A stretch of DNA of 64,000 bases from Candidatus Omnitrophota bacterium (lineage in GTDB: Bacteria; Omnitrophota; Gorgyraeia; Zapsychrales; Fredricksoniimonadaceae). A program made the position numbers and the translations under genes. Below the pieces are notes generated by a model, which searched no databases, was not told the DNA's origin, and was given only the letters and a program-made list of their open reading frames with translations. The stretch lies in NCBI GenBank assembly GCA_903944345.1, contig CAJARJ010000002.1, forward strand, positions 1,969 through 65,968. The letters run 5' to 3'. How positions within the stretch are numbered: position 1 is the stretch's first letter; each line of letters begins with the position of its first letter. Below are positions 13,269 through 31,165 of this stretch, piece by piece.

Positions 13269-13275
13269 CTTTCAC

Positions 13276-14004: not shown

Positions 14005-14018
14005 GATTCTTCCTTCTG

Positions 14019-14970: not shown

Positions 14971-14976
14971 AAAGCT

Positions 14977-15720
14977 TTACTTCTTGGCTTCCGGTTTGGC
15001 TGCAGGCTTGGCTGCTCCTGCTGCAGGCTTCGCTGCTCCCGCTGCAGGCTTGGCTGCTCCCGCTGCTGCCTTGTCATCCTTCGGCTTTTCTTTAATAACT
15101 TCCAGTTCCGGTGTTGCCGCGCCTTCCGCAGTCGTCGCCTCTGCTTCACGAGTCGAGAAGACCACTGCCGCAACGGCCGCGCCCGGGTCCATCTTGGTCC
15201 GCACGCCTGAAGGCAGCTTGAGGTCACTGACGTGAACCGAAGCGTGAATATCCAGGCCAGACACATCAACGTCGATATGCTGCGGAACATCTTTGGGCAA
15301 ACAGAAAATCTCGATCTCACGCAACAACTGTTCGAGTGTAGCACCCGGCTTCTTGATTCCAATGGCCTCGCCCTTAAGAATCAGCGGAACACGCAAGGAA
15401 ATTTCCTTGTCCATGAAAATACGCAAAAAATCCAGATGGACGATCAAATCCGAAACCGGATCAAACTGTGTGGCGCGCATAAGCGCAGGAAAATCCGCCA
15501 GTTTTTTCTCGCCCTCGGAGAGCTGCAAATGGAAAATAAAACTTTCTCCACTGTGCTGACGCATGATCCGCTCGTACTGACCGCGGGTAACCTGAACGCT
15601 CATCGGCTGCTGATCTCCGCCGTAAACGACCGCCGGAATCATACCGGACTTGCGCAGATCTTTCATCCGCTGACTGCCTTTTAAATTTCTTACCTGGACA
15701 TCCAATGTTACCTGTTCCAT
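14977..15720 (-). CDS. rplY: 50S ribosomal protein L25 / general stress protein Ctc with Ala/Lys/Pro repeat tail
   Basis: Start MEQVTLDVQVRNLKGSQRMKDLRKSGMIPAVVYG (start codon at 15718-15720). C-terminal tail AAGAAKPAAGAAKPAAGAAKPAAKPEAKK. Confidence 0.8.
   Translation of the reverse strand: MEQVTLDVQVRNLKGSQRMKDLRKSGMIPAVVYGGDQQPMSVQVTRGQYERIMRQHSGESFIFHLQLSEGEKKLADFPALMRATQFDPVSDLIVHLDFLRIFMDKEISLRVPLILKGEAIGIKKPGATLEQLLREIEIFCLPKDVPQHIDVDVSGLDIHASVHVSDLKLPSGVRTKMDPGAAVAAVVFSTREAEATTAEGAATPELEVIKEKPKDDKAAAGAAKPAAGAAKPAAGAAKPAAKPEAKK
14999..15070. repeat. Three tandem copies of a 21-nt unit (GCTGCAGGCTTGGCTGCTCCY) inside rplY 3' end
   Basis: Direct reading: gctgcaggcttggctgctcct / gctgcaggcttcgctgctccc / gctgcaggcttggctgctccc. 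Encodes (AAGAAKP)n. Confidence 0.8.
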
Positions 15721-15751
15721 ATCATCCTTCCTGCCTCTTCTTCTTGAATAC

Positions 15752-16702
15752 TTATCTATTAACCTCGAACAAACAGCTGATGGACTGCTCGTTGTGAATC
15801 CGCTTGATCGCTTCCGCCAGCAAAGGGGCAACCGTAAGCTGATGAATCTTGCTCACCTTCCTGCCTTTTGCGCTTAAAGGAATGCTATCGGTGATCACCA
15901 GTTCTTCCAGGGCCTTACACTCGGCCATACGGTCGATAGCCGGGCCGGAAAGAACCCCATGGCTAACCGCAGCAAAAACCTTGTCGACTCCCGCCTCTTT
16001 CAGTGCCTCAATCGCTTCGGTCAAAGACCCGCCAGTGGCCACAATGTCGTCAACCAGAACGGCATTGCGTCCCTTGACCTTACCGAGAATATTCATAACC
16101 TCGGTCTCCTCGGGTGACATGCGGCGCTTGTCAATAATAGCCAGGCCAGCCCCCAGGCGCTTGGCATAGGCACGCGCCATACGAATACCGCCCACATCCG
16201 GAGAAACCACCACGATATTCTTCATGCTCATCTTTTCGAAATGCTCACACAAAACGTTGATCGCATACAAATGATCAACCGGGATATCAAAGAACCCCTG
16301 AATCTGACTGGCATGCAAATCCATGCACAAAACCCGGTCAGCGCCAGCCGAAGTAATCAGATTGGCCACCAGCTTGGCCGTGATCGGAACCCGCGGCTGA
16401 TCCTTGCGATCCTGACGGGCATATCCATAAAACGGAATGACCGCCGTAACCCGCTTGGCTGAAGCACGCCGGGCGGCATCGATCAGAATCAGAAGCTCCA
16501 TCAAATTGTCGTTTGTCGGAGAGCAGGTGGACTGAACAATAAAAACGTCCTTGCCGCGCACATTGGACAAAATCTGCACGCGAATTTCTCCCTCGCTGAA
16601 ACGCCCGCACAGGACATCCGCCAGCGGGATATCCAAAAACGAACAAATCTTTTCTGCCAGTTCCTTGTTGGCATTACCGGAAAGAACACAAACCTCACTC
16701 AT
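15752..16702 (-). CDS. prs: Ribose-phosphate pyrophosphokinase
   Basis: PRPP synthetase motifs (DLHASQIQGFFDIPVDHL, VLVDDIVATGGSL). Start MSEVCVLSG at 16702. Confidence 0.9.
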   Translation of the reverse strand: MSEVCVLSGNANKELAEKICSFLDIPLADVLCGRFSEGEIRVQILSNVRGKDVFIVQSTCSPTNDNLMELLILIDAARRASAKRVTAVIPFYGYARQDRKDQPRVPITAKLVANLITSAGADRVLCMDLHASQIQGFFDIPVDHLYAINVLCEHFEKMSMKNIVVVSPDVGGIRMARAYAKRLGAGLAIIDKRRMSPEETEVMNILGKVKGRNAVLVDDIVATGGSLTEAIEALKEAGVDKVFAAVSHGVLSGPAIDRMAECKALEELVITDSIPLSAKGRKVSKIHQLTVAPLLAEAIKRIHNEQSISCLFEVNR

Positions 16703-17963
16703 GACGTTCCACCTTTTTAATAACACGTGCCGGAATACCCACCGCCACCCGATTGGCAGGAACCTTGCGTCCGGGCGTTACCACACTGCCCGCCCCGACT
16801 ACTGCTCCCGCCCCGACTTCCGTAGGGGCCACCAGCACCGCATCGCAACCGATAAAAGCCCCTCGACCGATATTCGTCTTGTTTTTATTCTTGCCGTCGT
16901 AATTTGCTGTTACCGCGCCACAGCCGATATTGGCTCCGCTACCGACATCCGCATCACCCAAAAAACTGAAATGCTTCATGTTCACATCTGCTCCCAAACG
17001 TGAACGGGAAATTTCCGCAAAATTCCCGACCGAAACCCGGTCAGCCAGCACAGTTCCGGGACGCAACCGGGCAAAAGGACCGACCGAACAATTTTCACCG
17101 ACACGCACACCATGATGAATATAGGTACACGGATAAATAACCGAATCCCGTCCGATACGCACATCCGACTCAACATATGTAGTCGCAGGGTCAACAACAG
17201 TGACTCCACTGCTCATCAAATCTTTTAAAATACGCTCCCGCATGATCGAGCCCGCCAGCGCCAGGTCCGCCCGGGTATTGATCCCCAGATTGGCTGTCCA
17301 GTCATCTGTAACCAGCGTATCCACCTTACACCCGCGCGACAAGAAAAGCTCAATTATGTCGGTCAGATAAAATTCTTTTTTCTTTGGGTTTATCGCAATA
17401 TCCGCAATCGAACCAAACAATTCCTTGCCGGCAAAACAATACACCCCGACATTAATTTCTCGAATAGCCCGCTCGGAAGTGTCAGCATCTTTATGCTCGC
17501 GAATGGCCCGAACCCTGCCGCTTTCATCCCGTAAGATCCGTCCATACCCTTCAGGATTAGCCAGCTCCGCAGTCAAAAACGTACATACAGCTCCCGAACG
17601 TCGGTGCCGGGAAACAAGTTTTCGAACGATCACCGGATCAAGCAGCGGAGTGTCTCCGCACATCACCAGAACTTCGCCGGAATAAGCTTTAAATTCGTCA
17701 GCCGCACAGCGTACCGCATGTGCTGTCCCCAACTGTTCTTCCTGAAGAACGATATCGGCGCGCCCCTCGACCGCTCGGCGAACCAATTCGGCCTCATGAC
17801 CCACCACGACATATGTTTTCAAAGAACCTGCGGCTTTGGCCGTGTCAATCACATAATCCAGAACCGGTTTTCCGCAAACCTCATGCAAAACTTTCGGCAC
17901 CCGGGAATTAAAACGCGTCCCTTTGCCGGCTGCAAGAATGATTGTTTTCAATTGTCGTTCCAT
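16695..17963 (-). CDS. glmU: Bifunctional UDP-GlcNAc pyrophosphorylase / GlcN-1-P N-acetyltransferase
   Basis: N-terminal nucleotidyltransferase (LAAGKGTRFNSRVPKVLH) and C-terminal left-handed beta-helix acetyltransferase. Confidence 0.85.
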   Translation of the reverse strand: MERQLKTIILAAGKGTRFNSRVPKVLHEVCGKPVLDYVIDTAKAAGSLKTYVVVGHEAELVRRAVEGRADIVLQEEQLGTAHAVRCAADEFKAYSGEVLVMCGDTPLLDPVIVRKLVSRHRRSGAVCTFLTAELANPEGYGRILRDESGRVRAIREHKDADTSERAIREINVGVYCFAGKELFGSIADIAINPKKKEFYLTDIIELFLSRGCKVDTLVTDDWTANLGINTRADLALAGSIMRERILKDLMSSGVTVVDPATTYVESDVRIGRDSVIYPCTYIHHGVRVGENCSVGPFARLRPGTVLADRVSVGNFAEISRSRLGADVNMKHFSFLGDADVGSGANIGCGAVTANYDGKNKNKTNIGRGAFIGCDAVLVAPTEVGAGAVVGAGSVVTPGRKVPANRVAVGIPARVIKKVERHE

Positions 17964-18133
17964 AGCGCAACATTTCTACGGCGGCTCTTTGCACGCTTCC
18001 CTATATAAAGAAGAAACGGGCACACTCTTGAATTCAGCAATATATAAAACCGCCAAAGAGCGCTAGTATAGCCGACACTTTTTCTTTCGTCAAGAATTAA
18101 ACCCGAAGGGCTCGCCCGACAACTCTTTCACTC

Positions 18134-20812
18134 TCAAATCCCGAGGAGATCTGCCGGATTCGCAACAGGAACGATCCTCAGAATCTCGCCCTCCAGTCCG
18201 ACAAAATCTTCCCGTTGAAACGCTGCAAGCATGGCTGGATCAAAGCTCATCGTGACCGCATCCGCAGAACGCTCACGTTCCATAGCCATCGCGTACGGAT
18301 CAAGACTAATACCGCCCGGAGCCTCTTTTTTCTTGGGGACATCATCTTCATAATCTGAATATAGCCGCACGCCCAGTCCAAGCCCCAGCAGAGACTGAAA
18401 CAGGTTTTCTGCAGCTCCCTTGCCCGGATCGCGCGCGCTGTCTCCATACAAAAGCAGCCGCCTCCAGACACCATCCCACTGGCGCCCACTCAAGGCAGCA
18501 GGACGATAAGTCACCCCGTCATTCAGATAAAGAACCGACTTTTCAATTCTCAGATCGCCGGAAAGTCTGTCCAGATTCAAGCCCGGATTAATACGCTTAA
18601 ACTCCCTGGCATTTACCGCTCCGGACGGATAACCAGCCATAATAACCGCCGCTTCCCGGGCACTCACTCTTTTGGTCAGCAAAGAAACAAAATTATCTCC
18701 CTCTCTCCGGGAGATATCCAGAGACACCTCCCTTTGGTCCCAGGACGAAAGACGCACCCGGTATTCGATCCCCAGAAAAACAACTCGGGCCTCATCCCTG
18801 CGCTCATTAATCTGCAAATCACTGACATGCACATAGCCATCTTTAAGAGTATCACGCAGTTTTGCGATATAGCCCGTACGATTTTCGTCGGCGGGCAGAG
18901 GGTCGTCAAGGCGGGTCTGCCATCTTTTTTTCACCACCGGTTGCTGATCCACCCCGGAAACAATGTCTTCCGTCGTCGGCCTGGACTCACGATCCTGACG
19001 CATTTGCAGAACATGTCGCCGGTTCCTGAAATAACGGCCGATGGCCTCGGCATACTGCCCCGAAAGAAAAACACGCAGCTCCCCCCGGTTGATCGACATG
19101 GCATTGGCTATAACCGCAGACGATTCGAACAAACGCTCTGCATCAACCGCAATAGAAAAAATATACCCGGGCACTCCCTGACGTAAGGAAGCCTCCTGGT
19201 CTTTTCTGAAAAGAATTTTGTAAACTTTCCCGGAGGCCGCAGGCGGAGTCTGAAAATAGACCTGGTCTTCTTCCCGGATCTTCACTGCCTGCTGAGAAAA
19301 GGCTCCGGCGACAGGCTGCATATCCTTGATAACCGATAAAAACTCGTCGAGCCAGGGATACTCGTCCGCTTTAACGTCAAGGATCTGCGCGCTGTCGATC
19401 ACATCCGGCTGGCGAATCATTGTAAACACCGCCCCCCGGCGGGCAATACTGTAAAAACCTTGAGCAACTCCCTGTTCTTCAAAGAATGCCGCGATATCGT
19501 TTACCCCGGTCTGATGAAACGGAATACTGAAATCCCGCTCTGCTCTTTCTACACCGTCCGGGAACAATTGAACCATGGCCGAAGCATTCCATTGCCCGCC
19601 CCAAGCTGCAATTTCATCAGCAATAAAATGCATCACCTCCGGCAAATCACCAACAAGAACGTCCTCCGCCATTGCAGCATCTCCGGCAAAAACCTGCCGG
19701 CCCATAACCGAAACCAAAGCCAGCTTGCCGGAAGCAAGCTGGGCGCGATCCGCCTCGGTAAAAAACCTGTCACGTTCCAGCACCCGGGATAACTGTACAC
19801 CGTCAACTCCGCCGGAGAAATACTTTCTTGGAACCGACTGGCCCTGCGGCCCCGATTCTTCCCGGATATAATCAAAGACACCCTGACGAAACGATTGCAG
19901 ATACTGTTCATAAATCTTCTGCGCCGACTGCGGATCCCGGGCCAGCACCCCGCCCGTCTTGCCGCGATCACTGTAAACCTGGTTCAGCAGAGCGTCTTTG
20001 AGCGCTTCTTTATACCAGGCCGCCAGAATCATGGCGTGAAACATCTGCCGAAGCGCGGTGAAATGCCGCCCCTGATTGACTTCCCGCTCTATCTCCGGAA
20101 CAATAACCTCACGAACAACACTTTTCGTCCATTCCTGCGAAGGCGCTTTCTTCTCGCCGCGGGCTGCCTGATAATCCGATTCCAGCATCACCTTAAGATG
20201 TGCCTGCGCAACAAACACCGAGTTCCCCCGCTCAACCACCCGCGCCCGGTCGGCGACAATCCATACCTTGTGAAAGGTATCCACCGGAATATCCGTCGAG
20301 CCAAACTGCTCCCTTGCCCGCGCATAAACCCTCTGCCAGAACGCCTGTCCCAACGCCTGTTCGGGATACAAGAGGGATGCCGTCAGCTGTTTGAGCACAT
20401 AATCCTGTGCGAGCATATCCTCTCCCAAACGGGTACGCGCCAAGTCCGGTTCTGCCATCCGCTCGCGTTCGACAGGAGACAAATTAACCCAGAGATCGCT
20501 CTCCTTGACCGTCAGGGCGGCAAGAAAATATTTAACCAGTTTTTGCGCTTCTGCCCTGAAATCTCCTCCACCAATGGCAAACCCTGACTGTCCCGGATCA
20601 ATCATAAAGTCAAACCGGAGCGGCTGCTGCGGATAAACTCTCAAGCCTTTAAGCGAAACCGGAATATACGGCTGACTTTGCGCCAACATGGAGCCAGGGG
20701 CCGGCAAACCCGCAATCTGGGCCTGCGCTGGAGCAGGAAAAGAACTTCCGGAAAGAAAAATCAAAGCCAGCGCCAACCGTGCGGCGCAATGAAAAAGAGA
20801 ATCATAATTCAT
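18134..20812 (-). CDS. Large secreted protein (copy P2, ~892 aa): signal peptide, conserved family N-domain, unique central region, conserved C-terminal DPAML motif
   Basis: Signal peptide MNYDSLFHCAARLALALIFLSGSSFPAPAQA. N-domain contains LRFDFMIDPG, KYFLAALT, DLWVNLSPVE, TDIPVDTFHKVWIV and PRKYFSGG. C-terminus reads GGISLDPYAM...SFDPAMLAAF. Confidence 0.65.
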   Translation of the reverse strand: MNYDSLFHCAARLALALIFLSGSSFPAPAQAQIAGLPAPGSMLAQSQPYIPVSLKGLRVYPQQPLRFDFMIDPGQSGFAIGGGDFRAEAQKLVKYFLAALTVKESDLWVNLSPVERERMAEPDLARTRLGEDMLAQDYVLKQLTASLLYPEQALGQAFWQRVYARAREQFGSTDIPVDTFHKVWIVADRARVVERGNSVFVAQAHLKVMLESDYQAARGEKKAPSQEWTKSVVREVIVPEIEREVNQGRHFTALRQMFHAMILAAWYKEALKDALLNQVYSDRGKTGGVLARDPQSAQKIYEQYLQSFRQGVFDYIREESGPQGQSVPRKYFSGGVDGVQLSRVLERDRFFTEADRAQLASGKLALVSVMGRQVFAGDAAMAEDVLVGDLPEVMHFIADEIAAWGGQWNASAMVQLFPDGVERAERDFSIPFHQTGVNDIAAFFEEQGVAQGFYSIARRGAVFTMIRQPDVIDSAQILDVKADEYPWLDEFLSVIKDMQPVAGAFSQQAVKIREEDQVYFQTPPAASGKVYKILFRKDQEASLRQGVPGYIFSIAVDAERLFESSAVIANAMSINRGELRVFLSGQYAEAIGRYFRNRRHVLQMRQDRESRPTTEDIVSGVDQQPVVKKRWQTRLDDPLPADENRTGYIAKLRDTLKDGYVHVSDLQINERRDEARVVFLGIEYRVRLSSWDQREVSLDISRREGDNFVSLLTKRVSAREAAVIMAGYPSGAVNAREFKRINPGLNLDRLSGDLRIEKSVLYLNDGVTYRPAALSGRQWDGVWRRLLLYGDSARDPGKGAAENLFQSLLGLGLGVRLYSDYEDDVPKKKEAPGGISLDPYAMAMERERSADAVTMSFDPAMLAAFQREDFVGLEGEILRIVPVANPADLLGI

Positions 20813-20915
20813 AGCAATCACTCCATATTGCATATTTTATGCGCGATTATGGCACATACTGTCAGAATATGCAAGCAAACGCAACATGCCTTGTCGCCCT
20901 TTTATGCCACACACC

Positions 20916-23900
20916 TTACCGCAAAGCAGTCGTAACTGCGGGAATAGAAGCAACGGAAGACCGGCCAAAAAACTGATCAAAATCAACGGCCTCTCGAATA
21001 GAAAGAATAACCGGGCTCAGGCCATGCGCATTACGAAAACTCTCCAGCATAGCCGGATCAATGTCAAACTCAATCTCGCCATCAGCAGAAATTCTAAACG
21101 CAAGGGACTGCGGATTAAGATCAATACCGCCCTTGTCGGCAGGGTAATCTGACAAAAACGATACGCTCTCAGACTCTTTTGTCATCCCTGGCCGGGATAA
21201 TATTCTGAAAGAAATCTCCCGCTTTAACATCTCTTTCACATCATGACTGATCAATGGATAAACAAAAATTCCTCGGTCCTGACCGCCGGCCTCATGCACA
21301 AGCGCATGTTTTTTGACAACCTGACGAAAAATGGCCACCATCGGAGCAAGTCGCACGATATCGTGCTGTTGGCGACCAAACAAGGCATCTGTCGATGCGA
21401 GAGAAACATCGTATCTCCGGGAGAATTCACTCTCAAAATATGCGGCAACGCGCTCGTCTATACTTCGCAGAGTGTCCCGTGTGTCGTGCATCTCATACAA
21501 TCCCCAACCGAGCTCATCCTCACGGGACAACCTTCCCTCCTCAAAAGGTTTATGATCAAAGAATCCCGGTTTCCTGGTATCCTGACAAAAACCGAAGTCT
21601 ATCAGCACAAGATGCCCGTCCGATGCGAAGCCAACGTTCTCTATCGCAAAATCCCGGTCGAAGACCCCCCTTTGCCAAACCGCTTCCATCAATTCGAAAA
21701 ACATATCCACGAAAGAATTTCCCAAACGCCGGATATCTGCTTCGCTTACTTCCCGCACGCGAAGTGTCGCCGCCATGTCATCACGAATGCCCTGCCCGTT
21801 GGGCTGAATGAATCCTCGTTTGATGATCAGGAACGGAGGCACGAGTCCTCCCAATCGCGAATACGCCAGTTCAAATGATTCCCACGTCTTTGTCCAGCTA
21901 ATACCGTACATTTCTAACATACTGTATGGATGATGATGTGGAACTTTTATCCCGTAATCCCGTTCCGGATCAATATAGAAATACGACTGCTTGCCTTCTT
22001 TTCTGACCGCAGATACGCCAAAAGATAAAAGTTGACCCGAAATCATTCCGGTTGCCGAATCTCCGATCCACGACTGGAAATCCTGTTCTGCCGCGAATCC
22101 CAATCTTGACAAAATATCCTGACTTAAGGGGTGCCCTCTTTCCATGTCATCCACCAACTTTCCGGCAAGGAACTCTGAATGACTCCGGGAACCGCCCCCC
22201 ACAGCATCGATCCGTTCTATCGCGTTGTCAGAAAGAATATTTGTTGCCCCTATAAGTACGGGGGCTACTGCGGAATCAATGATTACACCTGGCGAATTAT
22301 CCTGATCAATGATCCTGCGGACTCTCTCCTCTGCCGATAATCTTTCGAGAACTTCTGGTGCAGGCACCTTAAACGCAATATTACCCCCCTGGTCCCATCC
22401 TTCCGACTTGAACCATCGATCCTCTGACCTGACAAGCAAATCAACACGTGACACACCCTCGGCAGGTAAAGGAAACCAGGCATAATAGTCACCTTGCCCA
22501 TCTGCGGCCAGTATCGTATCAATCGTCCCGTTGCCGTTAACGGTCGAGGGATACACATCATCCAACATCACCAAAGGGGGCTTCCGCCATTCATTAATAC
22601 CCCAATGCAGGGTTAACTGTTCGTCCGGTGCCCCCTGAAACCTGACGCCAAACTTCAACCCCCTTTCATCAGGCTCCAATACCAGACTCAACTCATCTCC
22701 CCGCGAAGTTCTTATCGTTTTAGACCTCCAGGGGGGGGCGCCTTGCGTCGGATGATCAGCTGCTGGCAGCGCTGATCCGGAGATATTCGTATCCGGCTTT
22801 CGAAGAACATACAGTTGCGGACTGGTCCTGCTTATGAAATACTTGCCCGGAATAGAATAATTTAGTGATTGCAATCCTTCAAAATCCGCCGCCTGCAATA
22901 ACAAATGCGTAAGTCCACCAAGCACAGAGTACCCGCCCGGTTTCAAGGCATTCCGGAGATGCCCGACCAATTCCTTAGCCTGAGACCTTGTTGCGACCTG
23001 ATGATTAAAGCCCCCTCCTGTTGAAGTGATGATATCCATGCCTCGAACAAGCTCCTCCAAAGGGTCACGCATCAAATCCGCCTGAACGATATGGAGTGCA
23101 CTTTCCAGACGAGCCGACATTGATTCCAAACGGGAGATATTGGCTCCGTTTTTCTCAACCAGCCAATATTCAATCTCCGGCACCGGCCTGGACAAAAACG
23201 CATAATGCCTGCGAATGGCCTTATCCATCTCCAGCACAAGACCTCCGTCTCCTCCAAAAATATCCGCAATCCTGATGGCTTGTCCGGGACGAATCCGGGA
23301 CAACTCGTCAACAAGCCCAACGACCGCCTGCACAACATAAGGATATACTTCCTGCGCATAAAGCAGTCTTACCGCCAGAAGAGAACTCCCCCATCCATTC
23401 CAGTAAGTGTCGGGCAACAACTCGGATTCTGCAATATGGGTGGAATTAAATTCAAACTCATCTCCCATAAGTAAAGAAAAAAGAGCCCTGAGCTGCAGAT
23501 TCCTGCTGTCTGTTTTTTCCAGCTTTATTTCGGCGTACTGTCGTGTGGCCGGAAGATACCAGAATATTGTCCGGCGCCCTCGATTAAATTTTCCGTCTGC
23601 CCAATAAAGCACCAGATGCCGGTTAGTCAGACGGAATGATTCTCCGGGATAAAACGACAACACCTCAGAAAGATCCAGTGGCATCGCGGGAGATGCCCCC
23701 TTGGGAAGATCCCCTATGGAAACTACATCTCCCCAAAGACCATCCAGAGTCTTGATCGTTTCAAGGATACGTTCCGCCCGTACCTGCCGGGACATCTCCC
23801 AGGGGCCAAAAACACCTTGCCGGAACGTCACCCGGGTATCCGCATTAGCTTGTGCGCTGTCTTCCCCGTCGAGAAGATATTTTGATGTCGAAACATTATC

Positions 23901-25085
23901 CAAAGAACCCGAAGATAAATCCGTACTGAAATTGACCTGTGAACTCACCATCAGATAATCATTTGACCAGGACAATTGAGACGCATCAGGCTCAAGCGTG
24001 TTTACAAGAAGCACCGCCATATCCATTCCCACGCCCCCCGAAAAATACTTTCTTGGAACAGCACCATCCGGGTAAACATTTTCTTCTTCCCGCACCAGGC
24101 TGAAAGCTCCCTGCCGAAAAGACTCGACATACCTCTGCCAAATCTTCTCTGCTTCCCCGGGGTCTTCAATTTTAACTCCGGCGATCTTGTTCTGATCCAC
24201 ATACACCGCCGTGAGCAGGGACTTTCTGATTTTCTTCTTGTACCACGTGGCGAGGATCAGGGATTGATAGACCTGTCGCAAAGGCGCGAAATTGGCCCCT
24301 TCGTTGACTTCCTGCTCCAGTACCGGAACAACCACTTCGCGCAGGACGGTTCGGGCGATTTCCTGGGCACCGTTGTCAGATGAACCGTCGGGCTGAAGCA
24401 AGACAAGGCTGTCATCAGTGCCAGATACAGTCCCGGCCTCTCGCGCAGAAGCAACATAGTCAGCATCCAGCATGACCTTGAGCCGGGAATCGGTAATGTA
24501 CACCGCTCCCGCCTTGACATTCTCATAGACTTCCGCTTTTTCCGGAACAATCCACACCTTGTTAAACGTATCCACCGGAATGTCGGTAGTACCATATTTC
24601 TCCTGCGCCAGAGCGTAGACTTTCTGCCAGAACCTTTTGCCTGTTTCCCCTTGCGGATACAACAACGTGGCGGTGATCTGCTTGAGAATATAATCCTGCT
24701 CCAGAAGATCCCGGCCCATTTCGGTCTGGCCAAACGCTTCAGGAATAATGCGGTCTTTCTCATACGGGCTTAAGTTCACCCACAGGTCTTTCTCGGGAAT
24801 GGTCAGGCTGGCGAGAAAATATTTGATGAGTTTCCCGGATTCCTGCCGGGCCGACACAAGGTCGGCCTCTGCGCCTGATCGGGTTCCCGGATCAAGAATG
24901 AAATCGAAGCGAAGCGGCTCTTTTGGGTACACCTTAAGCCCTTTAAGAACAGCAGGATGAGACGCTGAAAAAGGATTGAACACCCCCCCAGGTGCAGGCA
25001 GAACGCTCTGGGCATAACCCGGTTGCAGGCTATTGGCCGCAAAAGCCAGAAGAAGAATAAAACAGAAACCTTTTCTCAGAAACAT
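20916..25085 (-). CDS. Large secreted multidomain protein (copy P3, ~1389 aa): signal peptide, conserved family N-domain, Rossmann/SAM-MTase-like motif, CBM25/CBM53-like module, protein-kinase-like (Brenner motif) domain, conserved C-terminal motif
   Basis: Signal peptide MFLRKGFCFILLLAFAANSLQPGYAQ. N-domain motifs as in P1 and P2. IRIADIFGGDGGLVLEM resembles methyltransferase motif I. TLHWGINEW...WDQGGNIAFKV resembles a starch-binding CBM25. FDRDFAIENVGF...HLVLIDFGF resembles a HxDxxxxN...DFG kinase core. C-terminus reads GGIDLNPQ...DPAMLESFRNAHGLSPVILSI. Confidence 0.65.
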   Translation of the reverse strand: MFLRKGFCFILLLAFAANSLQPGYAQSVLPAPGGVFNPFSASHPAVLKGLKVYPKEPLRFDFILDPGTRSGAEADLVSARQESGKLIKYFLASLTIPEKDLWVNLSPYEKDRIIPEAFGQTEMGRDLLEQDYILKQITATLLYPQGETGKRFWQKVYALAQEKYGTTDIPVDTFNKVWIVPEKAEVYENVKAGAVYITDSRLKVMLDADYVASAREAGTVSGTDDSLVLLQPDGSSDNGAQEIARTVLREVVVPVLEQEVNEGANFAPLRQVYQSLILATWYKKKIRKSLLTAVYVDQNKIAGVKIEDPGEAEKIWQRYVESFRQGAFSLVREEENVYPDGAVPRKYFSGGVGMDMAVLLVNTLEPDASQLSWSNDYLMVSSQVNFSTDLSSGSLDNVSTSKYLLDGEDSAQANADTRVTFRQGVFGPWEMSRQVRAERILETIKTLDGLWGDVVSIGDLPKGASPAMPLDLSEVLSFYPGESFRLTNRHLVLYWADGKFNRGRRTIFWYLPATRQYAEIKLEKTDSRNLQLRALFSLLMGDEFEFNSTHIAESELLPDTYWNGWGSSLLAVRLLYAQEVYPYVVQAVVGLVDELSRIRPGQAIRIADIFGGDGGLVLEMDKAIRRHYAFLSRPVPEIEYWLVEKNGANISRLESMSARLESALHIVQADLMRDPLEELVRGMDIITSTGGGFNHQVATRSQAKELVGHLRNALKPGGYSVLGGLTHLLLQAADFEGLQSLNYSIPGKYFISRTSPQLYVLRKPDTNISGSALPAADHPTQGAPPWRSKTIRTSRGDELSLVLEPDERGLKFGVRFQGAPDEQLTLHWGINEWRKPPLVMLDDVYPSTVNGNGTIDTILAADGQGDYYAWFPLPAEGVSRVDLLVRSEDRWFKSEGWDQGGNIAFKVPAPEVLERLSAEERVRRIIDQDNSPGVIIDSAVAPVLIGATNILSDNAIERIDAVGGGSRSHSEFLAGKLVDDMERGHPLSQDILSRLGFAAEQDFQSWIGDSATGMISGQLLSFGVSAVRKEGKQSYFYIDPERDYGIKVPHHHPYSMLEMYGISWTKTWESFELAYSRLGGLVPPFLIIKRGFIQPNGQGIRDDMAATLRVREVSEADIRRLGNSFVDMFFELMEAVWQRGVFDRDFAIENVGFASDGHLVLIDFGFCQDTRKPGFFDHKPFEEGRLSREDELGWGLYEMHDTRDTLRSIDERVAAYFESEFSRRYDVSLASTDALFGRQQHDIVRLAPMVAIFRQVVKKHALVHEAGGQDRGIFVYPLISHDVKEMLKREISFRILSRPGMTKESESVSFLSDYPADKGGIDLNPQSLAFRISADGEIEFDIDPAMLESFRNAHGLSPVILSIREAVDFDQFFGRSSVASIPAVTTALR

Positions 25086-25151
25086 GCGCAAAGTATGCCC
25101 GACAGATTCCAAGTTTTCAAGTGAAGGAATCTTCTGAACCTCAAAAAGGGC

Positions 25152-27656
25152 TTACCACCCTCCTCCGCCACCACCTCCGCCACCGCCGCCGCTGGAACCG
25201 CCACCACCAGTGCCAGAGCTGGAAGAAGGCGCGGATGAAGCTGAGCTGATCGAACTGCTCAACGAACTGCCCAGACCTGAAGCAAAAGCAACACCGCCTG
25301 CCGTTGTTAACAATGAACCGGAGTACCAGTGCGGGCGATAAGCACCCTCCCCCGCAGAGGCTCGCGCCAAAACCTCGGAAAAACCTTCCGCCCAGACCTG
25401 CTCGACGCCAAGGGCAAGCGCATACGGTAAATACTGCTCGAACAACTCAACACTTTCTTGTGGACGCCCCAACATCCGCAACCGATCCTTTTCGGCCACC
25501 GAAAGATACATCCGAAAACCTTCCACCTGGTCCATAATCCTGCGCCCCTGAAAAGTCGGCGCTCTGAGCAAATAATAAAAAAGCACATCCAGCCCGACTG
25601 CCATCAAAAGAACCAGCAGTACAATTGGCGAGGAGAACGCCACAAGTGTCAAGATTCCAAAAATTTCCCCCCCAAAAAACGGCAAAGAAAAAACCGAAAG
25701 CAACAAAGCTCCCGGCAGATGAACAGGATTACGCGCAACAGACTTCCATGCCTGGAACAACGCCGCTCCAAGCGCTGCAACACCCAAAGTCCAGATCGAA
25801 AGCCACAAACACATAAACAACACGACCGGTGGGCTTTTGGCATCAGTCAATACAGTTACGGCAATAACCGCAAAACAGAGACCCAGCCCAACACCAAAAA
25901 CACCCCGGTTGGTCACAAAATAATTCTTCTCCTGGGAGCGCGCGAGGGCACCCTGCAGACGGGAAATTCCTGAAGCAATAACGGCATGATTCCTCTGCAG
26001 AAGCTCAAGCCTGCCACGTCCTCTGAAAAACTCCGCAGCCAGAACTTTTTCCTCGGAAGAAAGGACATCCTCTGCCTTTCCGGTTCTGGCAAGAACAGAC
26101 GTCCCGTCAGCTTCCTCGCTGATCGTCAGATACCCCTTGACCGCCATACTGATCAAGGCACAGGCCGCGACCTGATTATCATATCCCATATTCATCAAAT
26201 ATCGCAAACCCGCCGGAGACAGGTCTTTGGGAGGATAGAACAGCGGAATAATAACCCCTTTTTCCGGATCTCGCCCGACACGATTCCAGGAAACAAGATA
26301 AAACAGAAGAAGGATAACAAGACCCATTCCGCCTGCCAGAAAACCCCGCCAGTCCCGCAAAAAATACATCAAACGCTGTTGCGGCGTAGGCCCCAGCACA
26401 ATTCCTTTGGGCCAACTGACCGCAATCGTCAAACCTTCATGCGCGAGCAGCGCACGGGTTGTCCTGAAAGTAATTCTGTTCTGCGCATCCATGCCTGTTT
26501 CGGCATCTTTGCCCCTCGCGCCTTCCAACCCCGTATAAACCGCCGTCTTCAAAACACGCTGCTGCGCCCTGGAAGGAAGCACAACCACCGCGGAAACCTG
26601 ATTCATGGCAAAATCCCAGCCATTACCGGTCACATTCCAGTACAATTCGTCATAATCTTCATAAAAACCGGTCTGGCGGTCCGTCCCGTAGGTAATAACA
26701 TATTCATGCTCCCCGACAGAGACGATCTCTTCTTTGGATCCCAGATAAGTCCTGAGGCCATTGGCCTGTTTTTTTTGATGATATTCTTCAGGCTGACCGT
26801 CGCGCATGACCTTGAGCACTTTAAAATCCACCAGCATCCGGCGCCCAGAAGCTGTTTTATACGACGTCGGGAAATCCCGGTAAATACCATGCCTGATCTG
26901 CTTGCCTTCGGCCAGCACGCGAATAGTCTCGGTCACCAGCATAGAACCATCAACACGAACAACAATATCGCTGTGAAATGCCAAGATACGTTCCTCGGCC
27001 AGCGAAGATCCAATCCCTAAAAACACAAACAGAGCGGCAATCCCACAAGCTGCCACACCCCCTCCCAAGCCCTGATTACCTGAAAGCCGAATCTCGGGAG
27101 CCGCACGCTCAAGGGCGCTCTCAATCTCAAAAAACTTTTCTGGCCTGAACCCGGCCACGGCAGCGACAAGATTCCCCGGAAAAGAACAAACTGCTGTATT
27201 AAATTCACGAACACTCCCGTTGTAATAACGCCGGGCCATCTGCAGCTCATCCTCGATTTTGATCAGCGATTCCTGTAAAGAAAGATAATGACTGTCAGCC
27301 TTCAGATCCGGGTAAGCTTCCGCCAGGGCAAGCAGTCCACGCAATCCCAGAGACAGACTGCTTTCCGCGACCACACGCCCCAGTGGCCCGGTTGTTGTTG
27401 CCTGTGCACGCAGTGCCGTCACGTCTTCAAGAAGATCGCGTTCATAAGCGGCATAATGTTTGACCACATTGACCAGATTGGGAACAAGATCATGCCGTCG
27501 TTTGAGCTGAACATCAATACCGCTGAGGGCTTCCTGCAGGCTACTGCGCAGTTTCACAAAACGGTTAAACAACATGACGGCATAACTGGCAACCAACGCA
27601 ATCACAAGAATAATGGCCATAAATATATTGAACCCTCCGGATAAAGATTTGTCCAA
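25152..27656 (-). CDS. LemA-family domain fused to DUF2207-type multi-pass membrane protein with Gly-rich C-terminal tail
   Basis: N-terminus matches the LemA family (TM helix + LRSSLQEALSGIDVQLKRRHDLVPNLVNVVKHYAAYE). A DUF2207-like extracellular domain follows (HGIYRDFPT...YEDYDELYWNVTG), then several TM helices, and a tail SSSSGTGGGGSSGGGGGGGGGGGW. Confidence 0.7.
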   Translation of the reverse strand: MDKSLSGGFNIFMAIILVIALVASYAVMLFNRFVKLRSSLQEALSGIDVQLKRRHDLVPNLVNVVKHYAAYERDLLEDVTALRAQATTTGPLGRVVAESSLSLGLRGLLALAEAYPDLKADSHYLSLQESLIKIEDELQMARRYYNGSVREFNTAVCSFPGNLVAAVAGFRPEKFFEIESALERAAPEIRLSGNQGLGGGVAACGIAALFVFLGIGSSLAEERILAFHSDIVVRVDGSMLVTETIRVLAEGKQIRHGIYRDFPTSYKTASGRRMLVDFKVLKVMRDGQPEEYHQKKQANGLRTYLGSKEEIVSVGEHEYVITYGTDRQTGFYEDYDELYWNVTGNGWDFAMNQVSAVVVLPSRAQQRVLKTAVYTGLEGARGKDAETGMDAQNRITFRTTRALLAHEGLTIAVSWPKGIVLGPTPQQRLMYFLRDWRGFLAGGMGLVILLLFYLVSWNRVGRDPEKGVIIPLFYPPKDLSPAGLRYLMNMGYDNQVAACALISMAVKGYLTISEEADGTSVLARTGKAEDVLSSEEKVLAAEFFRGRGRLELLQRNHAVIASGISRLQGALARSQEKNYFVTNRGVFGVGLGLCFAVIAVTVLTDAKSPPVVLFMCLWLSIWTLGVAALGAALFQAWKSVARNPVHLPGALLLSVFSLPFFGGEIFGILTLVAFSSPIVLLVLLMAVGLDVLFYYLLRAPTFQGRRIMDQVEGFRMYLSVAEKDRLRMLGRPQESVELFEQYLPYALALGVEQVWAEGFSEVLARASAGEGAYRPHWYSGSLLTTAGGVAFASGLGSSLSSSISSASSAPSSSSGTGGGGSSGGGGGGGGGGGW

Positions 27657-27683
27657 CTTACAAAGCTCAGGCCTGTCAATATG

Positions 27684-27724
27684 ATAAAAAACCGGTGGGC
27701 GGTTTTAATCGCGCCACCGGTCTT
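27684..27724 (-). terminator. Putative rho-independent terminator ending the fmt-dsbD-redoxin-Cys-rich operon
   Basis: Imperfect inverted repeat CCGGTGGGCG-gttttaat-CGCGCCACCGG. On the minus-strand transcript it is followed by UUUUUUAU, just past the stop at 27745. Confidence 0.45.
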
Positions 27725-27744
27725 TGCCATTCAATCAACTCATG

Positions 27745-27951
27745 CTATTGTTCTTTCTTCCCGGCACAGTCGCAAGCCTTCTGCTGACAGGAACACTTTG
27801 CGTCCTTCATGCAATCGCATTTGCTCTCCTGGCTGCACCCGCACGCACAAGGCATTCCGTTCTTAAGACAACAGGATTTGTCCTTGGCAAAGGCCACTCC
27901 CGAGGCAAGAACAAGCATCGCACACAGCACCGCCACAACTGATCTTTTCAT
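27745..27951 (-). CDS. Small secreted Cys-rich protein (68 aa; 22-aa signal peptide + 46-aa mature peptide with 12 Cys), metallothionein-like
   Basis: MKRSVVAVLCAMLVLASGVAFA | KDKSCCLKNGMPCACGCSQESKCDCMKDAKCSCQQKACDCAGKKEQ. AAGGAG RBS 7 nt upstream of the ATG. Confidence 0.6.
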   Translation of the reverse strand: MKRSVVAVLCAMLVLASGVAFAKDKSCCLKNGMPCACGCSQESKCDCMKDAKCSCQQKACDCAGKKEQ

Positions 27952-27992
27952 AACGAACTCCTTAATGTTATTAAATTATTCCGGAGTATTTT

Positions 27993-28283
27993 TTATGCGA
28001 TCTGCGGCGGCGGGCGAAAGATATCCTTCAAGGCCTCCCGGAAATAAAACGAATCGGCGACAATAAAACATTCTTTTGATAAAACAAGCCCCAACGCCGG
28101 ATTTTCTCCGGGAATATCGGCCAGAATTGGCGGGCAGGGCATCAGGGCCGCCTGACAGCCGCAATCAGAACCATCATGACAGCAACTGCAGGCGCAAGGA
28201 AGATTCTTCCTGTCGCCTTCAAAGCCAGAAACAGGACGTGGAAGAACTATCAATAAAACAAGCAAGAAAACCAGCCAACGCAT
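27993..28283 (-). CDS. Small secreted Cys-rich protein (96 aa) sharing a PCAC(S/G)C motif with 27745..27951
   Basis: Signal peptide MRWLVFLLVLLIVLPRPVSG followed by ...NLPCACSCCHDGSDCGCQAALMPCPP.... AGGA/GGTG upstream of the ATG. Confidence 0.5.
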   Translation of the reverse strand: MRWLVFLLVLLIVLPRPVSGFEGDRKNLPCACSCCHDGSDCGCQAALMPCPPILADIPGENPALGLVLSKECFIVADSFYFREALKDIFRPPPQIA

Positions 28284-28379
28284 TTTTCCTGAACACCTTT
28301 CTTCGTAACGAGAATATCATCCCGCCCGACAATAGCCAAGAAAAAAGCCGGATCAGGCCCTCATCCCTGATGAAACGGA

Positions 28380-28982
28380 TCAATATTTGACCGAACAACC
28401 ATAAGACTTGCCGGATTCGACTGTGACCGGATTCCCCGCCAGCAACTGATCAAGCACGGCCGCCGCGTAGTTACGCGCCAGTTTTAAATCCTCCGTCGAA
28501 GTACTCGGTCTGTCGTCAATGGCACCCTGGTAAACGAGCTTGCCGGCGGCATCAATGATAAAGATGTGCGGCGTGGTCTGAGCTCCATACAGACGGCCAA
28601 CCGCGCCATCGGCGTCCATCAGGGCTGCTGTACCAGCAAACCCTTCACTGGCCAGACGAACGGCCAAACCCGCGGGAGAATAATGTCCCTGCTTCCCGGG
28701 AGCCGAAGAATTAACCGACAACCAGACAACTCCTTTAGCCGTATAATCGGCCTGCCATTTCTGCATGGCTTTGGCATCATAAAATTTTCTAACAAAAGGA
28801 CATTCCGGATTGGTCCACTCAAGCAAAACAATCTTGCCTTTAAAAGAACCCAGAGGATAGGCTTCACCCTTGACATCGGTAAGAGTAAAATCCGGAGCCA
28901 TGTCTCCGGTAACAACCTGCGCCCAAGACGCCCCGACACATAAAACAAGCGCAACCCAAAAAAGAAAAAACGTTCTTAACAT
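28380..28982 (-). CDS. Periplasmic thioredoxin-fold redoxin (TlpA/AhpC-TSA-like) with atypical active site
   Basis: Signal peptide MLRTFFLFWVALVLCVGASWAQ. GKIVLLEWTNPECPFV sits at the usual WCxxC position but has a single Cys. A second Cys lies near the C-terminus (SYGCSVKY). Confidence 0.6.
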   Translation of the reverse strand: MLRTFFLFWVALVLCVGASWAQVVTGDMAPDFTLTDVKGEAYPLGSFKGKIVLLEWTNPECPFVRKFYDAKAMQKWQADYTAKGVVWLSVNSSAPGKQGHYSPAGLAVRLASEGFAGTAALMDADGAVGRLYGAQTTPHIFIIDAAGKLVYQGAIDDRPSTSTEDLKLARNYAAAVLDQLLAGNPVTVESGKSYGCSVKY

Positions 28983-29096
28983 GTTGTCCCCCTTAATTTT
29001 GTCTTTCTGCAGAAAAAATAAGTCGAATTTGTATCGAATCAAAAGCCAACAAAGTTTAGTCTTGGAAAACTTCTGATCCTTACCAAAAGAACGAAA

Positions 29097-31124
29097 CTAT
29101 TTCTGCAAAACATCCCGCAAAAAGGGCCGGGTCAGCAGTTCCGGCAAAAGCTGAGCCGAGTCACTGCCAGCGGCATAAAACACATACAAAGGAACCCCTG
29201 CCCGCCCGAAAGACTCCAGGGCCTGCGTAATGCGTTCATCACGGCTAGTCCAGTCGGCAATAAAAAGTGCCACATTCTCTTGTTTAAACAATGCCAATAT
29301 TGCCGGAGTTTTTAATACTGTCAGCTTGTTCACCTGGCAGGTCAGACACCAACTGGCAGTAAAATCGATAAAAACCGGACGACCCTCCAAACGGGCAGCC
29401 GCGACCGCCTCCGGATCATACGACTGCCAGACAATATCTTTCCCGCTCGAATCTCCCGGCAAAACAGCCAAACCGTACACCAGCGCCGCCGCAAATACCG
29501 CCAGGGCCAGCCACCGGCGGCCACGCCCAAAAAACCAGCAGGCCAAAGCCGCCGCAAGCAAAATCCCCAAAGCACTCACCAAAACCGACATGCCCGACTG
29601 CTCACCGAGGACAGATAACAGCCAGATCACGCAGCCCATAAGGACAAAACCCAACAGCTGTTTTAACGTCAGCATCCAGTTACCGGGACGGGGAACAAAA
29701 CGTAAACAAGCAGGAAAAACCGTCACCAAAGCCATCGGCAACGCCAGTCCAAGTCCAAGAAAAGTAAAAATGAGCAAACCCGCCATCGGCGGCTGAGTAA
29801 GGGCAAAGCCCAGGGCACTACCCATAAAAGGAGCCGTACAGGGCGTAGCCACGACTGTCATCAGTACGCCCGAAAGAAATGCCGAACCCTGAACCGGGAC
29901 AGAGGCTCCGACAACAAACTCGAAAACTCCGAACAAATTTAAAGCCAACACAAACAATAAAAGACTGATCAGCAGGACAAAAACCGGCGACTGGAACTGA
30001 AACCCCCACCCCAGGGAATGACCCGCGGCCTTGAGTAAAAACAACAATACCGCAAGAGCCCAGAAAGAAACCATAATGCCCAGCACATAAAAACCTGCCT
30101 GCACCAAAGCCCGGCGCTGATCGCTCTCTTTTCTGACCAACTGCAGAACCTTGAGAGAAAGAACCGGCAGAACACAAGGCATACCATTGAGAATGATCCC
30201 GCCAATAAAAGCCAAGAAACAGGCCAGCCACAAACCCGAAATGAATGCCGGAGTCGCGGATGCCACCGATGCGCTCACGGGGGCCTTGATCCTGACCGCC
30301 CTGGCTATCCCCCGGCTGTCCCAACCCCGCTCATGCACCAATATCCCTTCAATAAAATCCGGAGCTGATGTCTCCAACCCTGAACGCTCGACCAACAGTC
30401 GCGCCCGGTTTTGCGAACGGGTAAAAACCTGACCCGCTGCATGGCGAACCAGCCGATCCGAAAAAGGAAAGAACTCCACCCGGCCTTCCTGCCAGAACGG
30501 CAAACCAAGGTCAAGCCTCCATTTATCCGCTGAAACAGTTGCCCGCACATCAAGTTCAGGCAATTCAAACGGCCAGAGCAGACGCGTCTGCTCGAAAAGC
30601 GGTGCCTGCCCGGAAGGCCGGGGCGATTCCTGCGCAAGAGTCGGCGGCAAAACCAGGGACAATTCCGCTTCGCCCGGTAAACAATCCACCTGACAAGCAA
30701 GCCAGGAGACTTGAGCGCTGATCTGTACCGGAGCCGGATTCTGCGTTGCAGGGACAGTTACCGGCACAGCCAGCAATACTTCCCGCTCATAACCATAGGA
30801 CGCCAACGGTCCGGAAACAATGCGCTCTGGATACGGCCAGCGAACTTCTCCCGCCTGCCAGCCTTCGGGCAGCCGGAGCTCAATCGATGGCGCCAGCCCC
30901 GAGTCCCCGGGGTTGCGCCAATAAACATGCCAGCCATCGTCCATAACCATGCGCAGGCCCAGCCAGAGGGTTCCTCCGGCCGGCCAGGATTCATGTTCGG
31001 CCACCAGACTGACGCTCGTATGCGCAGAATAAACTTCAGCCCGAACAAAAGAAGCGGCCCCCAAAACCACTACTCCGGCCCAGAATATCCGACAGAAAAA
31101 CTGTTGAATGGAATACGCAAACAT
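29097..31124 (-). CDS. dsbD: Thiol:disulfide interchange protein DsbD (N-terminal periplasmic domain, CcdA-like TM core, C-terminal thioredoxin domain)
   Basis: DsbD-alpha-like N-domain. TM core with conserved Cys (MPCVLPVLSLK). C-terminal thioredoxin fold with WCLTC. Confidence 0.8.
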   Translation of the reverse strand: MFAYSIQQFFCRIFWAGVVVLGAASFVRAEVYSAHTSVSLVAEHESWPAGGTLWLGLRMVMDDGWHVYWRNPGDSGLAPSIELRLPEGWQAGEVRWPYPERIVSGPLASYGYEREVLLAVPVTVPATQNPAPVQISAQVSWLACQVDCLPGEAELSLVLPPTLAQESPRPSGQAPLFEQTRLLWPFELPELDVRATVSADKWRLDLGLPFWQEGRVEFFPFSDRLVRHAAGQVFTRSQNRARLLVERSGLETSAPDFIEGILVHERGWDSRGIARAVRIKAPVSASVASATPAFISGLWLACFLAFIGGIILNGMPCVLPVLSLKVLQLVRKESDQRRALVQAGFYVLGIMVSFWALAVLLFLLKAAGHSLGWGFQFQSPVFVLLISLLLFVLALNLFGVFEFVVGASVPVQGSAFLSGVLMTVVATPCTAPFMGSALGFALTQPPMAGLLIFTFLGLGLALPMALVTVFPACLRFVPRPGNWMLTLKQLLGFVLMGCVIWLLSVLGEQSGMSVLVSALGILLAAALACWFFGRGRRWLALAVFAAALVYGLAVLPGDSSGKDIVWQSYDPEAVAAARLEGRPVFIDFTASWCLTCQVNKLTVLKTPAILALFKQENVALFIADWTSRDERITQALESFGRAGVPLYVFYAAGSDSAQLLPELLTRPFLRDVLQK

Positions 31125-31165
31125 TGGTCTCCCTTCGAAGCGGCGAGCACCGCCTCAACACTACT

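Follow-up and report, generated by a model that had tools for sequence, protein, structure and literature searches.

The protein considered here, P3, is encoded on the minus strand of a 64,000-nucleotide stretch of DNA from a Candidatus Omnitrophota bacterium (contig CAJARJ010000002.1, positions 1,969 to 65,968), referred to below as the window. P3 is a member of a very large protein family seen almost only in Omnitrophota, in which head and tail modules are constant while enzyme modules are shuffled. In the reading favored here, P3 is an exported modular cargo protein, namely, a glycan-directed kinase/methyltransferase that would act outside the cytoplasm of its producer, at or in a foreign cell. 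Taken as a whole, this reading is given about an even chance of being correct. The part that concerns the domains and the family, taken alone, is held with high confidence; the glycan as target and the foreign cell as site of action are each proposed only tentatively. The P3 gene and the modules of its product are arranged as follows, with residue numbers referring to the 1398-residue translation of the open reading frame (ORF) from its TTG start (20916..25112, minus strand), from which nine is to be subtracted for numbering from the ATG at 25085.

20916..25085, minus strand: P3 gene (ATG start), 1389 residues, product identical to database protein P0001
25011..25085, minus strand: predicted Sec signal peptide, residues 10-34 (MFLRKGFCFILLLAFAANSLQPGYA, with Q following the cleavage site), by sequence inspection
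24027..25010, minus strand: conserved N-module, residues 35-362, a fold without detectable relative
22785..23843, minus strand: methyltransferase-like cargo module, residues 424-776, with a predicted Rossmann core at residues ~575-776 (nucleotides 22785..23390) and the motifs DIFGGDG, YWLVExN and LKPGG
22359..22727, minus strand: candidate starch-binding-type beta-sandwich (PF23166), residues 796-918, with the motifs LHWGINEW..PP and WFKSEGWDQGGNIAF
21195..22193, minus strand: protein-kinase-like module, residues 974-1306, with an N-terminal helical extension, G1040-x-Q1042, K1056, E1081, D1154, N1159 and D1172 (DFG)
20964..21131, minus strand: conserved C-module, residues 1328-1383 (GGIDL...DPAML...GLSPVILSI...FFG), from the family alignment

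P0001 is annotated in the database as hypothetical only. At least 13 metagenome contigs encode a protein identical to P3, with neighboring genes unchanged. The three motif regions that an initial annotation of the window had described in P3 were all located in the translation, with the methyltransferase-like string IRIADIFGGDGG...DIITSTGGG corresponding to residues 613-701 (nucleotides 23010..23276), the string TLHWGINEWRKPP...EGWDQGGNIAFKV, resembling a carbohydrate-binding module (CBM), corresponding to residues 834-916 (nucleotides 22365..22613), and the kinase-like string FDRDFAIENVGF...LIDFGF corresponding to residues 1151-1175 (nucleotides 21588..21662). When the whole of P3 was scanned against Pfam, exactly three weak matches were obtained, all below cut-off, namely, Ig_N_CWD1 (residues 798-907; E=0.002), Pkinase (residues 1134-1182; E=0.1) and Methyltransf_25 (residues 641-727; E=0.19), corresponding to the three kinds of module that the initial annotation had named. 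Judged by sequence, each cargo domain of P3 belongs to a known superfamily, of which it appears to be a new and divergent member.

A search for homologs of the whole of P3 revealed more than 4800 relatives, most of which match only the first ~25% of the protein. Every organism-bearing source name among these relatives was that of Candidatus Omnitrophica/Omnitrophota. The layout of the family was counted in the best 120 relatives, which range from 779 to 2327 residues in length. The N-module, of ~330 residues, lies within roughly the first 400 residues of these proteins, typically at residues 30-350, and the copy found in P3 is 46-73% identical to those of its relatives. The C-module comprises ~56 residues. 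In 113 of the 120 proteins, the distance between its GGI[DSTN][LFM] motif and the C-terminus is 44-105 residues, and in most of them it is 56-70. The cargo recognized in the family by Pfam includes methyltransferases, GGDEF, PPDK_N/PEP-utilizers, PGK and phosphoribosyltransferase domains, together with HATPase_c, response regulator (CheY), PP2C, NUDIX, HAD and SNF2 helicase domains, as well as GNAT, GDSL lipase, PLD and Pkinase domains and HEAT, TPR and pentapeptide repeats.

Each of the cargo modules of P3 recurs alone, at other positions, in other members of the family, and the combination of modules seen in P3 was found in no other protein of the searched collections. As such, the unusual domain string attributed to P3 in the initial annotation is real, although P3 is not an isolated oddity, being instead one of a huge shuffling family in Omnitrophota. 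What is unusual is the design of this family, in which a signal peptide precedes enzymes of the cytoplasmic type, and not the particular string found in P3. When one genome was scanned for each GTDB species, at least 594 genomic loci of the family were confirmed. The best 80 of these were all in metagenome-assembled genomes (MAGs) of Candidatus Omnitrophota/Omnitrophica or in bins named 'uncultured Planctomycetales', which were taken as Omnitrophota, and several genomes were represented by 4-6 or more copies. With only three family loci in 2.9 million viral contigs, a phage origin of the family is unlikely. In the passages searched of the Omnitrophota giant-protein papers and of the Nature Microbiology survey of Omnitrophota, no description of a family with these N- and C-modules was found.

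The predicted fold of the N-module had no significant structural relative. The best, non-significant matches included colicin Ia, NheA, MakA, Cry6Aa and YaxB, all alpha-helical pore-forming or translocating toxins. Such model-based resemblance can be taken as no more than a hint that the N-module takes part in membrane crossing.

That P3 is exported via the Sec pathway, as the initial annotation had maintained, is a well-founded prediction. The N-terminus of P3, MFLRKGFCFILLLAFAANSLQPGYA followed by QS, is organized like a Sec signal peptide, with a basic n-region (MFLRKG), a 14-residue h-region (FCFILLLAFAANSL) and a c-region (QPGYA) that ends at a small-x-Ala|Gln site, with QS following. A hydrophobic region was found at the N-terminus of 107 of the 120 relatives, and an AxA-like site in 98; those relatives without a hydrophobic core are mostly truncated gene calls that start in or just before the N-module. 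Among the relatives, the small-x-Ala|Gln site is kept in both sequence and position, immediately N-terminal to the N-module. No other hydrophobic segment is present in 93 of the 120 proteins, and hydropathy analysis of P3 itself revealed no convincing internal transmembrane (TM) helix. The organism is a diderm; BamA, Skp, LpxD, LpxC/FabZ, LpxA and LpxI are encoded at 4381..11789 (minus strand).

Examination of the kinase-like module bore out the earlier observation of an HxDxxxxN...DFG phosphotransferase motif in P3. When compared with PDB sequences using phmmer, residues 1143-1183 aligned to the catalytic loop and DFG motif of PKC iota (E=0.002), while a profile of the kinase family matched AceK (E=0.003) and CIPK23 (E=0.008), with MAPK11 and PKC also being among the best matches. 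An AlphaFold model of the module (predicted local distance difference test, 87.2; predicted template modeling score, 0.88) is bilobal, comprising an N-lobe beta-sheet with alphaC and a helical C-lobe, and has protein kinases, namely, AceK, RIO, PKG, IRAK and OspG, as its nearest structural neighbors. The catalytic loop of P3 takes the form Asp-x4-Asn (D1154, N1159), with the Asp of the DFG motif lying 13 residues after the Asn. In an alignment of 19 kinase homologs, D1154 in the catalytic loop, G1161 and D1172 of the DFG motif are invariant, K1056 is kept in 17, and a Gly-rich G1040-x-Q1042 loop is present. Single members of the kinase family match the Pfam families AceK_kinase, ABC1 and Pkinase; the Pfam kinase cut-offs were not reached (Pkinase, 12.4-14.9 bits vs. 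31.7; ABC1, 11.4 vs. 22.9). The similarity of this region to kinases is nonetheless beyond chance, and the module is assigned as an AceK/RIO-like atypical kinase that retains the catalytic Lys, Asp, Asn and DFG-Asp and looks intact.

The kinase module of P3 shows only 12-15% identity to the kinase domain of AceK and to RIO/Bud32-type kinases. In contrast to these, it has a helical extension of its own at the N-terminus as well as its own helices at the C-terminus, presents GxQ in place of GxGxxG, lacks the AceK regulatory domain, and is found behind a signal peptide and beside a CBM. When 1.84 billion representative proteins were scanned exhaustively with HMMER, using residues 780-1310 as the query, only 27 relatives were obtained at E<=0.001, 14 of them below 1e-10, and nearly all of the 27 match the kinase part. 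Given that so few relatives were found in so large a collection, the P3 kinase appears to be a very rare branch of the kinase superfamily.

In five of the kinase homologs (P0121, P0126, P0127, P0130 and P0131), a domain unrecognized by Pfam is joined to one or the other side of the kinase; P0123 was noted along with these fusion proteins. A profile of this domain matches the 3-deoxy-D-manno-octulosonic acid (Kdo) transferase WaaA of family GT30 (2xci, E=2.6e-6; 4bfc, E=0.0015), and the gene adjoining one stand-alone kinase homolog is weakly similar to the same Kdo-transferase-like domain (hhalign 23%, E=9e-4). P0121 comes from an Omnitrophica MAG and P0127 is encoded on an 8.8-Mb contig. Elsewhere, the kinase-like core occurs eight times in tandem in P0122 (3552 residues) and two to three times in other proteins of 1500-3150 residues (P0136, P0137, P0138 and P0141). 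Such repetition suggests that very long proteins of the Omnitrophota type are also built in part from this module.

The methyltransferase-like unit (residues ~424-776) recurs at quite different positions in P0002, P0003, P0006, P0008 and P0080. An alignment of the six members shows motif I as DIFGGDG, an acidic residue after beta2 in six of six (YWLVExN; LVE, LVD or LID), D or N at the motif II position, and LxxGGxLIVTG, with the LKPGG motif kept throughout. Of the S-adenosylmethionine (SAM)-methyltransferase motif I and post-I signature noted in the initial annotation, the acidic post-I residue is conserved and motif I is kept in part; the order of the motifs is preserved, including motif II, which the annotation had suggested be sought in an alignment. 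Single module sequences matched methyltransferase families in Pfam at E=0.006-0.05 at best; the hidden Markov model (HMM) consensus of the six-member module matched ten SAM-methyltransferase Pfam families, among them Methyltransf_12 (E=3e-6), with two above cut-off (Methyltransf_25, 3.8e-6, 27.9 bits vs. 27; Ubie_methyltran, 9e-5, 22.4 bits vs. 20.1). The module also aligned with the Pfam-recognized methyltransferase domains of other family members (hhalign 72%, E=3e-5), while a profile search of PDB gave E=0.2-3 only. From these comparisons, the similarity of the region is judged to be beyond chance, if weaker for P3 itself, and its assignment as a Rossmann methyltransferase is well supported at the profile level. 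Relative to class I SAM methyltransferases (Methyltransf_12/25 and UbiE/COQ5; O-methyltransferase-type motif I as in Plu4894), P3 keeps the order of motif I, acidic post-I residue, motif II Asp and LKPGG, yet differs in having Phe in motif I and in two features specific to its module, namely, a conserved TSxGGGFN and an N-terminal extension of ~150 residues.

When residues 780-939 were compared alone with Pfam, PF23166 was matched at E=4.9e-5 across profile positions 3-116 of 121 (114/121 covered). PF23166 is the Ig-like N-terminal domain of alpha-glucan water dikinase (GWD) 1, and we take it to be equivalent to CAZy family CBM45. The match to CBM53 was weak (E=0.12, 13.2 bits vs. a cut-off of 27.6), and CBM_25 was not among the Pfam matches. 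Accordingly, of the CBM25/CBM53-like module proposed in the initial annotation, the putative glycan-binding type was upheld while the identity as CBM25/53 was not, with CBM45 seeming to fit better. Among the 1.84 billion representative proteins, the sole close homolog of this module was found within family member P0011, at 36-38% identity. In P0011, the CBM-like segment (residues ~457-540 and 708-790) is followed by an ATP-grasp domain (PF14397 'sugar-transfer associated', PF02655), providing a second case of a CBM of the P3 type ahead of an ATP-using enzyme. Two further proteins were recovered from metagenomes by matching the pattern LHWG[IV]N[EG]W, namely, L001 (NPIE01002167.1, 2048..5062, plus strand), which combines a GH57 glycoside hydrolase, a PF23166 domain (52.7 bits) and a type IX secretion system (T9SS) tail, and L002, the module of which matches PF23166 at 33.9 bits. 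Comparison of the P3/P0011 pair with the L001/L002 modules gave an hhalign probability of 95.9% (E=6e-9), and LHWG.N.W..PP is invariant in the alignment of the four sequences. With the alignment of the two CBM sequences as query, a profile search of PDB returned only spurious globin matches (E~1).

The similarity of the CBM-like region is thus likewise beyond chance, and the module is assigned by sequence as a divergent module of the starch- or alpha-glucan-binding type. It has in common with other PF23166 modules the motif LHWG(I/V)N(E/G)W..PP as well as a C-terminal motif rich in Trp and Gly, although the latter reads WFKSEGWDQGG in P3 rather than W(D/N)NN.G.(D/N)(F/Y), and it is joined to kinase-like and methyltransferase-like modules rather than to an amylase or dikinase. 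L001 illustrates that a GWD-type module can also be part of a starch-active enzyme secreted by a bacterium. Family members P0039, P0047, P0061, P0087 and P0103 carry PPDK_N, in some cases together with PEP-utilizers domains. PPDK_N and PEP-utilizers are catalytic parts of glucan and pyruvate dikinases. A CBM45-like module would make these members GWD-like; when an HMM of the P3 CBM was compared with 145 collected proteins, no PPDK_N-carrying member was matched.

In the favored reading, the CBM would tether P3 to a polysaccharide or glycoconjugate, whereupon the kinase, and possibly the methyltransferase, would modify the tethered glycan or something bound to it. A glycan target is favored because the kinase lies directly behind a carbohydrate-binding module, because kinase homologs are fused to a WaaA-like domain and the gene adjoining a stand-alone homolog weakly resembles that domain, and because, in P0011, a CBM like that of P3 stands ahead of an ATP-grasp domain associated with sugars. 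The kinase fold is known to phosphorylate sugars in KdkA, WaaP, POMK and maltokinase. KdkA and WaaP, with their protein-kinase-like fold, offer a precedent for phosphorylation of a glycan by such a fold, and the fusion of P3 kinase homologs to GT30 domains parallels the partnership between KdtA and KdkA.

According to the same reading, P3 would act at or inside a host or prey cell rather than in the periplasm of its own producer, with the N- and C-modules possibly targeting or delivering it there. ATP, SAM, GTP and phosphoribosyl pyrophosphate (PRPP) are not available in the periplasm or outside cells. Because ATP and SAM, as well as GTP and PRPP in the case of other family cargo, are cytoplasmic cofactors, activity would be expected where a foreign cytoplasm is accessible. 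Such action would fit the parasitic or predatory lifestyle that has been proposed for Omnitrophota (PMC10066038), and the equally puzzling 'extracellular' metabolic domains of the Archaeovorins (West-Roberts et al., bioRxiv 10.1101/2023.11.21.568195). The Archaeovorins are described there as giant Omnitrophota proteins that contain methyltransferase, PPDK_N, NUDIX, GGDEF, HAD, HATPase_c, HEAT and TPR domains and are predicted to lie outside the cytoplasm. On the basis of that description, the phylum and the repertoire of cytoplasm-type domains are the same as in the P3 family; by contrast, the Archaeovorins are of at least 30,000 residues, whereas the best 120 members of the P3 family comprise 779-2327 residues, do not have multiple TM helices and have the constant N- and C-modules as their defining feature.

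A more far-reaching version of this reading, considered improbable, holds that the N-module, apparently a new fold, and the C-module together constitute an unrecognized export or delivery platform specific to Omnitrophota, with P3 being a delivered effector that modifies alpha-glucan of its victim. Dozens of cytoplasm-type enzymes would then be carried from ultra-small, host-dependent bacteria into or onto a host or prey cell. In the case of P3, the CBM45-like module might dock on storage or wall alpha-glucan of the victim, while the kinase and methyltransferase would run on the ATP and SAM of that cell.

Several findings weigh against the favored reading. The signal peptide was called by eye and from hydropathy only. 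A weak hydrophobic stretch at residues ~942-961 (GVIIDSAVAPVLIGATNILS; 22230..22289, minus strand; Kyte-Doolittle 1.72) is located between the CBM-like and kinase-like modules; were this a TM helix, the kinase and the CBM would face opposite sides of the membrane. As the stretch contains Asp and Pro, it probably is not one. The PF23166 score of P3, 23.9 bits, lies under the gathering cut-off of 27, and P3 alone matched Methyltransf_25 at E=0.05-0.19 (12.9-14.7 bits vs. a cut-off of 27). In motif I of the methyltransferase, DIFGGDG, Phe replaces the first Gly of GxGxG, with two of the three Gly residues being retained, and this substitution puts the predicted binding of SAM, and catalysis, in doubt. 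Of the conserved kinase Lys/Glu pair, for which the initial annotation had proposed an alignment check, the Lys stood up; the Glu is found in P3 as E1081, within the helix predicted to be alphaC, although no more than 8 of the 19 homologs have Glu at this position. A protein substrate would be equally compatible with the modeled kinase fold, since the nearest structural neighbors of the model are protein kinases, and fold similarity alone cannot separate protein from glycan substrates. As to targeting, neither the N- nor the C-module had a match in Pfam, NCBIfam or PDB sequences, and a role for these modules in targeting or delivery is a conjecture. No secretion or delivery genes were found among the neighbors of P3, which are housekeeping genes, and tandem copies were seen in only 3 of the best 80 loci, with family genes being mostly scattered. 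For these reasons, a dedicated gene cluster was also considered unlikely.

Much of the same evidence bears on other explanations of P3. The protein could be a self-directed envelope enzyme that, in the periplasm or at the surface of its producer, phosphorylates or methylates the lipopolysaccharide (LPS) core, capsule or coat sugars of that cell, with the N- and C-modules acting as envelope anchors. The fusion of the kinase family to Kdo-transferase-like GT30 domains speaks for this, as does the position of one paralog in the window directly downstream of the lipid A/BamA gene cluster; yet both the GT30-fused and the stand-alone kinase homologs are without a signal peptide, the CBM is of an alpha-glucan/starch type rather than an LPS-binding type, and P3 itself is flanked by housekeeping genes. 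A self-directed enzyme is considered unlikely. The suggestion that P3 is a secreted protein kinase akin to Fam20 or CotH, directed at extracellular or envelope protein targets with the CBM only anchoring it to a polysaccharide matrix, draws on the kinase fold with its intact catalytic residues, on the protein kinases (AceK, RIO, PKG, IRAK and OspG) nearest to the model, and on the predicted signal peptide. Kinship with Fam20 or CotH was rejected, as neither sequence nor fold comparisons gave a match to the domains of Fam20C or CotH. The analogy to such kinases drawn in the initial annotation hence found no specific link, and this explanation is decidedly unlikely.

Two further explanations would deny P3 an enzymatic role abroad. 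In one, judged quite unlikely, the methyltransferase-like and kinase-like modules are pseudoenzymes in a non-catalytic scaffold within a surface layer, and the family as a whole is an adhesin or coat. Many pseudokinases are kept as binding or structural units. Degeneration of motif I (G to F), the alphaC Glu not being kept across the kinase family, replacement of the catalytic-loop Asn in some kinase homologs (e.g., P0053, with FDHDLLIDR), HEAT and TPR repeats as common cargo in relatives, and the absence of cofactors outside cells are all consistent with such a scaffold. Still, K1056, E1081, D1154, N1159 and D1172 are all present in P3, both Asp residues are invariant in the 19 homologs, and the acidic post-I residue and LKPGG are kept in all six homologs of the methyltransferase module. 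In the other, P3 is not exported at all but is an ordinary cytoplasmic multi-enzyme protein, with the N-terminal hydrophobic segment being non-functional or an anchor. All types of family cargo are indeed typical cytoplasmic enzymes that need ATP, SAM, GTP or PRPP, and the same doubt about export is raised for the glycolytic domains of Archaeovorins by West-Roberts et al. (bioRxiv 10.1101/2023.11.21.568195). Set against this are the positive n-region, the 14-residue h-region and the small-x-Ala|Gln site conserved before the N-module, the positive-inside rule, which places the C-terminal bulk of the protein outside, and the 93 of 120 relatives with no other hydrophobic segment. A cytoplasmic P3 is considered very unlikely.

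Known secretion systems and effector families were also considered. Like polymorphic toxin and effector families and T9SS cargo, the P3 family combines a constant trafficking part with a swappable payload in multicopy, shuffled proteins. Unlike in polymorphic toxins, the payload is central rather than C-terminal and consists of metabolic and signaling enzymes rather than nucleases, deaminases or pore-formers. Membership among polymorphic toxins was rejected, as no small immunity gene adjoins P3, the next gene, 82 nucleotides away, encoding an 899-residue paralog. T9SS cargo was rejected, as Pfam and NCBIfam detected no Por_Secre_tail in the C-terminus of P3, unlike in L001. The same scans revealed no TPS, PAAR, Rhs or LXG domains in P3, and two-partner secretion was rejected given the absence of its defining domains.

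Omnitrophota are widespread, uncultured and ultra-small bacteria that are thought to be parasites or predators, and attention has so far centered on their giant genes. The P3 locus would represent a second class beside these, being mid-sized, present in multiple copies per genome and easier to study. If the head and tail do serve as a delivery device, then the list of payloads, including kinases, methyltransferases, cyclases, phosphatases, dikinases and nucleotide enzymes, would amount to a catalogue of what Omnitrophota do to other cells. P3 itself offers approachable pieces, namely, a new and very rare kinase branch linked repeatedly to sugar-handling domains, a divergent starch-binding-type module and an N-module without detectable structural relative.

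The window contains three members of the family, with P3 being accompanied by two paralogs. Their N-modules are 46-49% identical and the C-terminal motif is common to all three.

18134..20833, minus strand: paralog P2, 899 residues, 82 nucleotides downstream of P3, with N- and C-modules as in P3 and cargo without a Pfam match
683..4327, minus strand: third paralog, 1214 residues, just downstream of the bamA-skp-lpxD-lpxC/fabZ-lpxA-lpxI cluster

The cargo of the third paralog likewise gave no Pfam match at a meaningful E-value. Upstream of P3 lies a gene encoding a LemA-DUF2207 fusion of 834 residues (25152..27656, minus strand), the Ser/Gly-rich tail of which includes 11 Gly residues followed by Trp. 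This protein partially matches MamQ (LemA-type) in NCBIfam, and the order of its gene and that of P3 is kept on other P3-bearing contigs. GC skew, taken in 2-kb bins, is negative in each bin of the window (1..64000), with a cumulative value of -4.5, and nearly all genes annotated from 683 to 31124 are encoded on the minus strand. As the skew is uniformly negative and the genes are so oriented, the window probably lies within one replichore, with its genes being strongly co-oriented.

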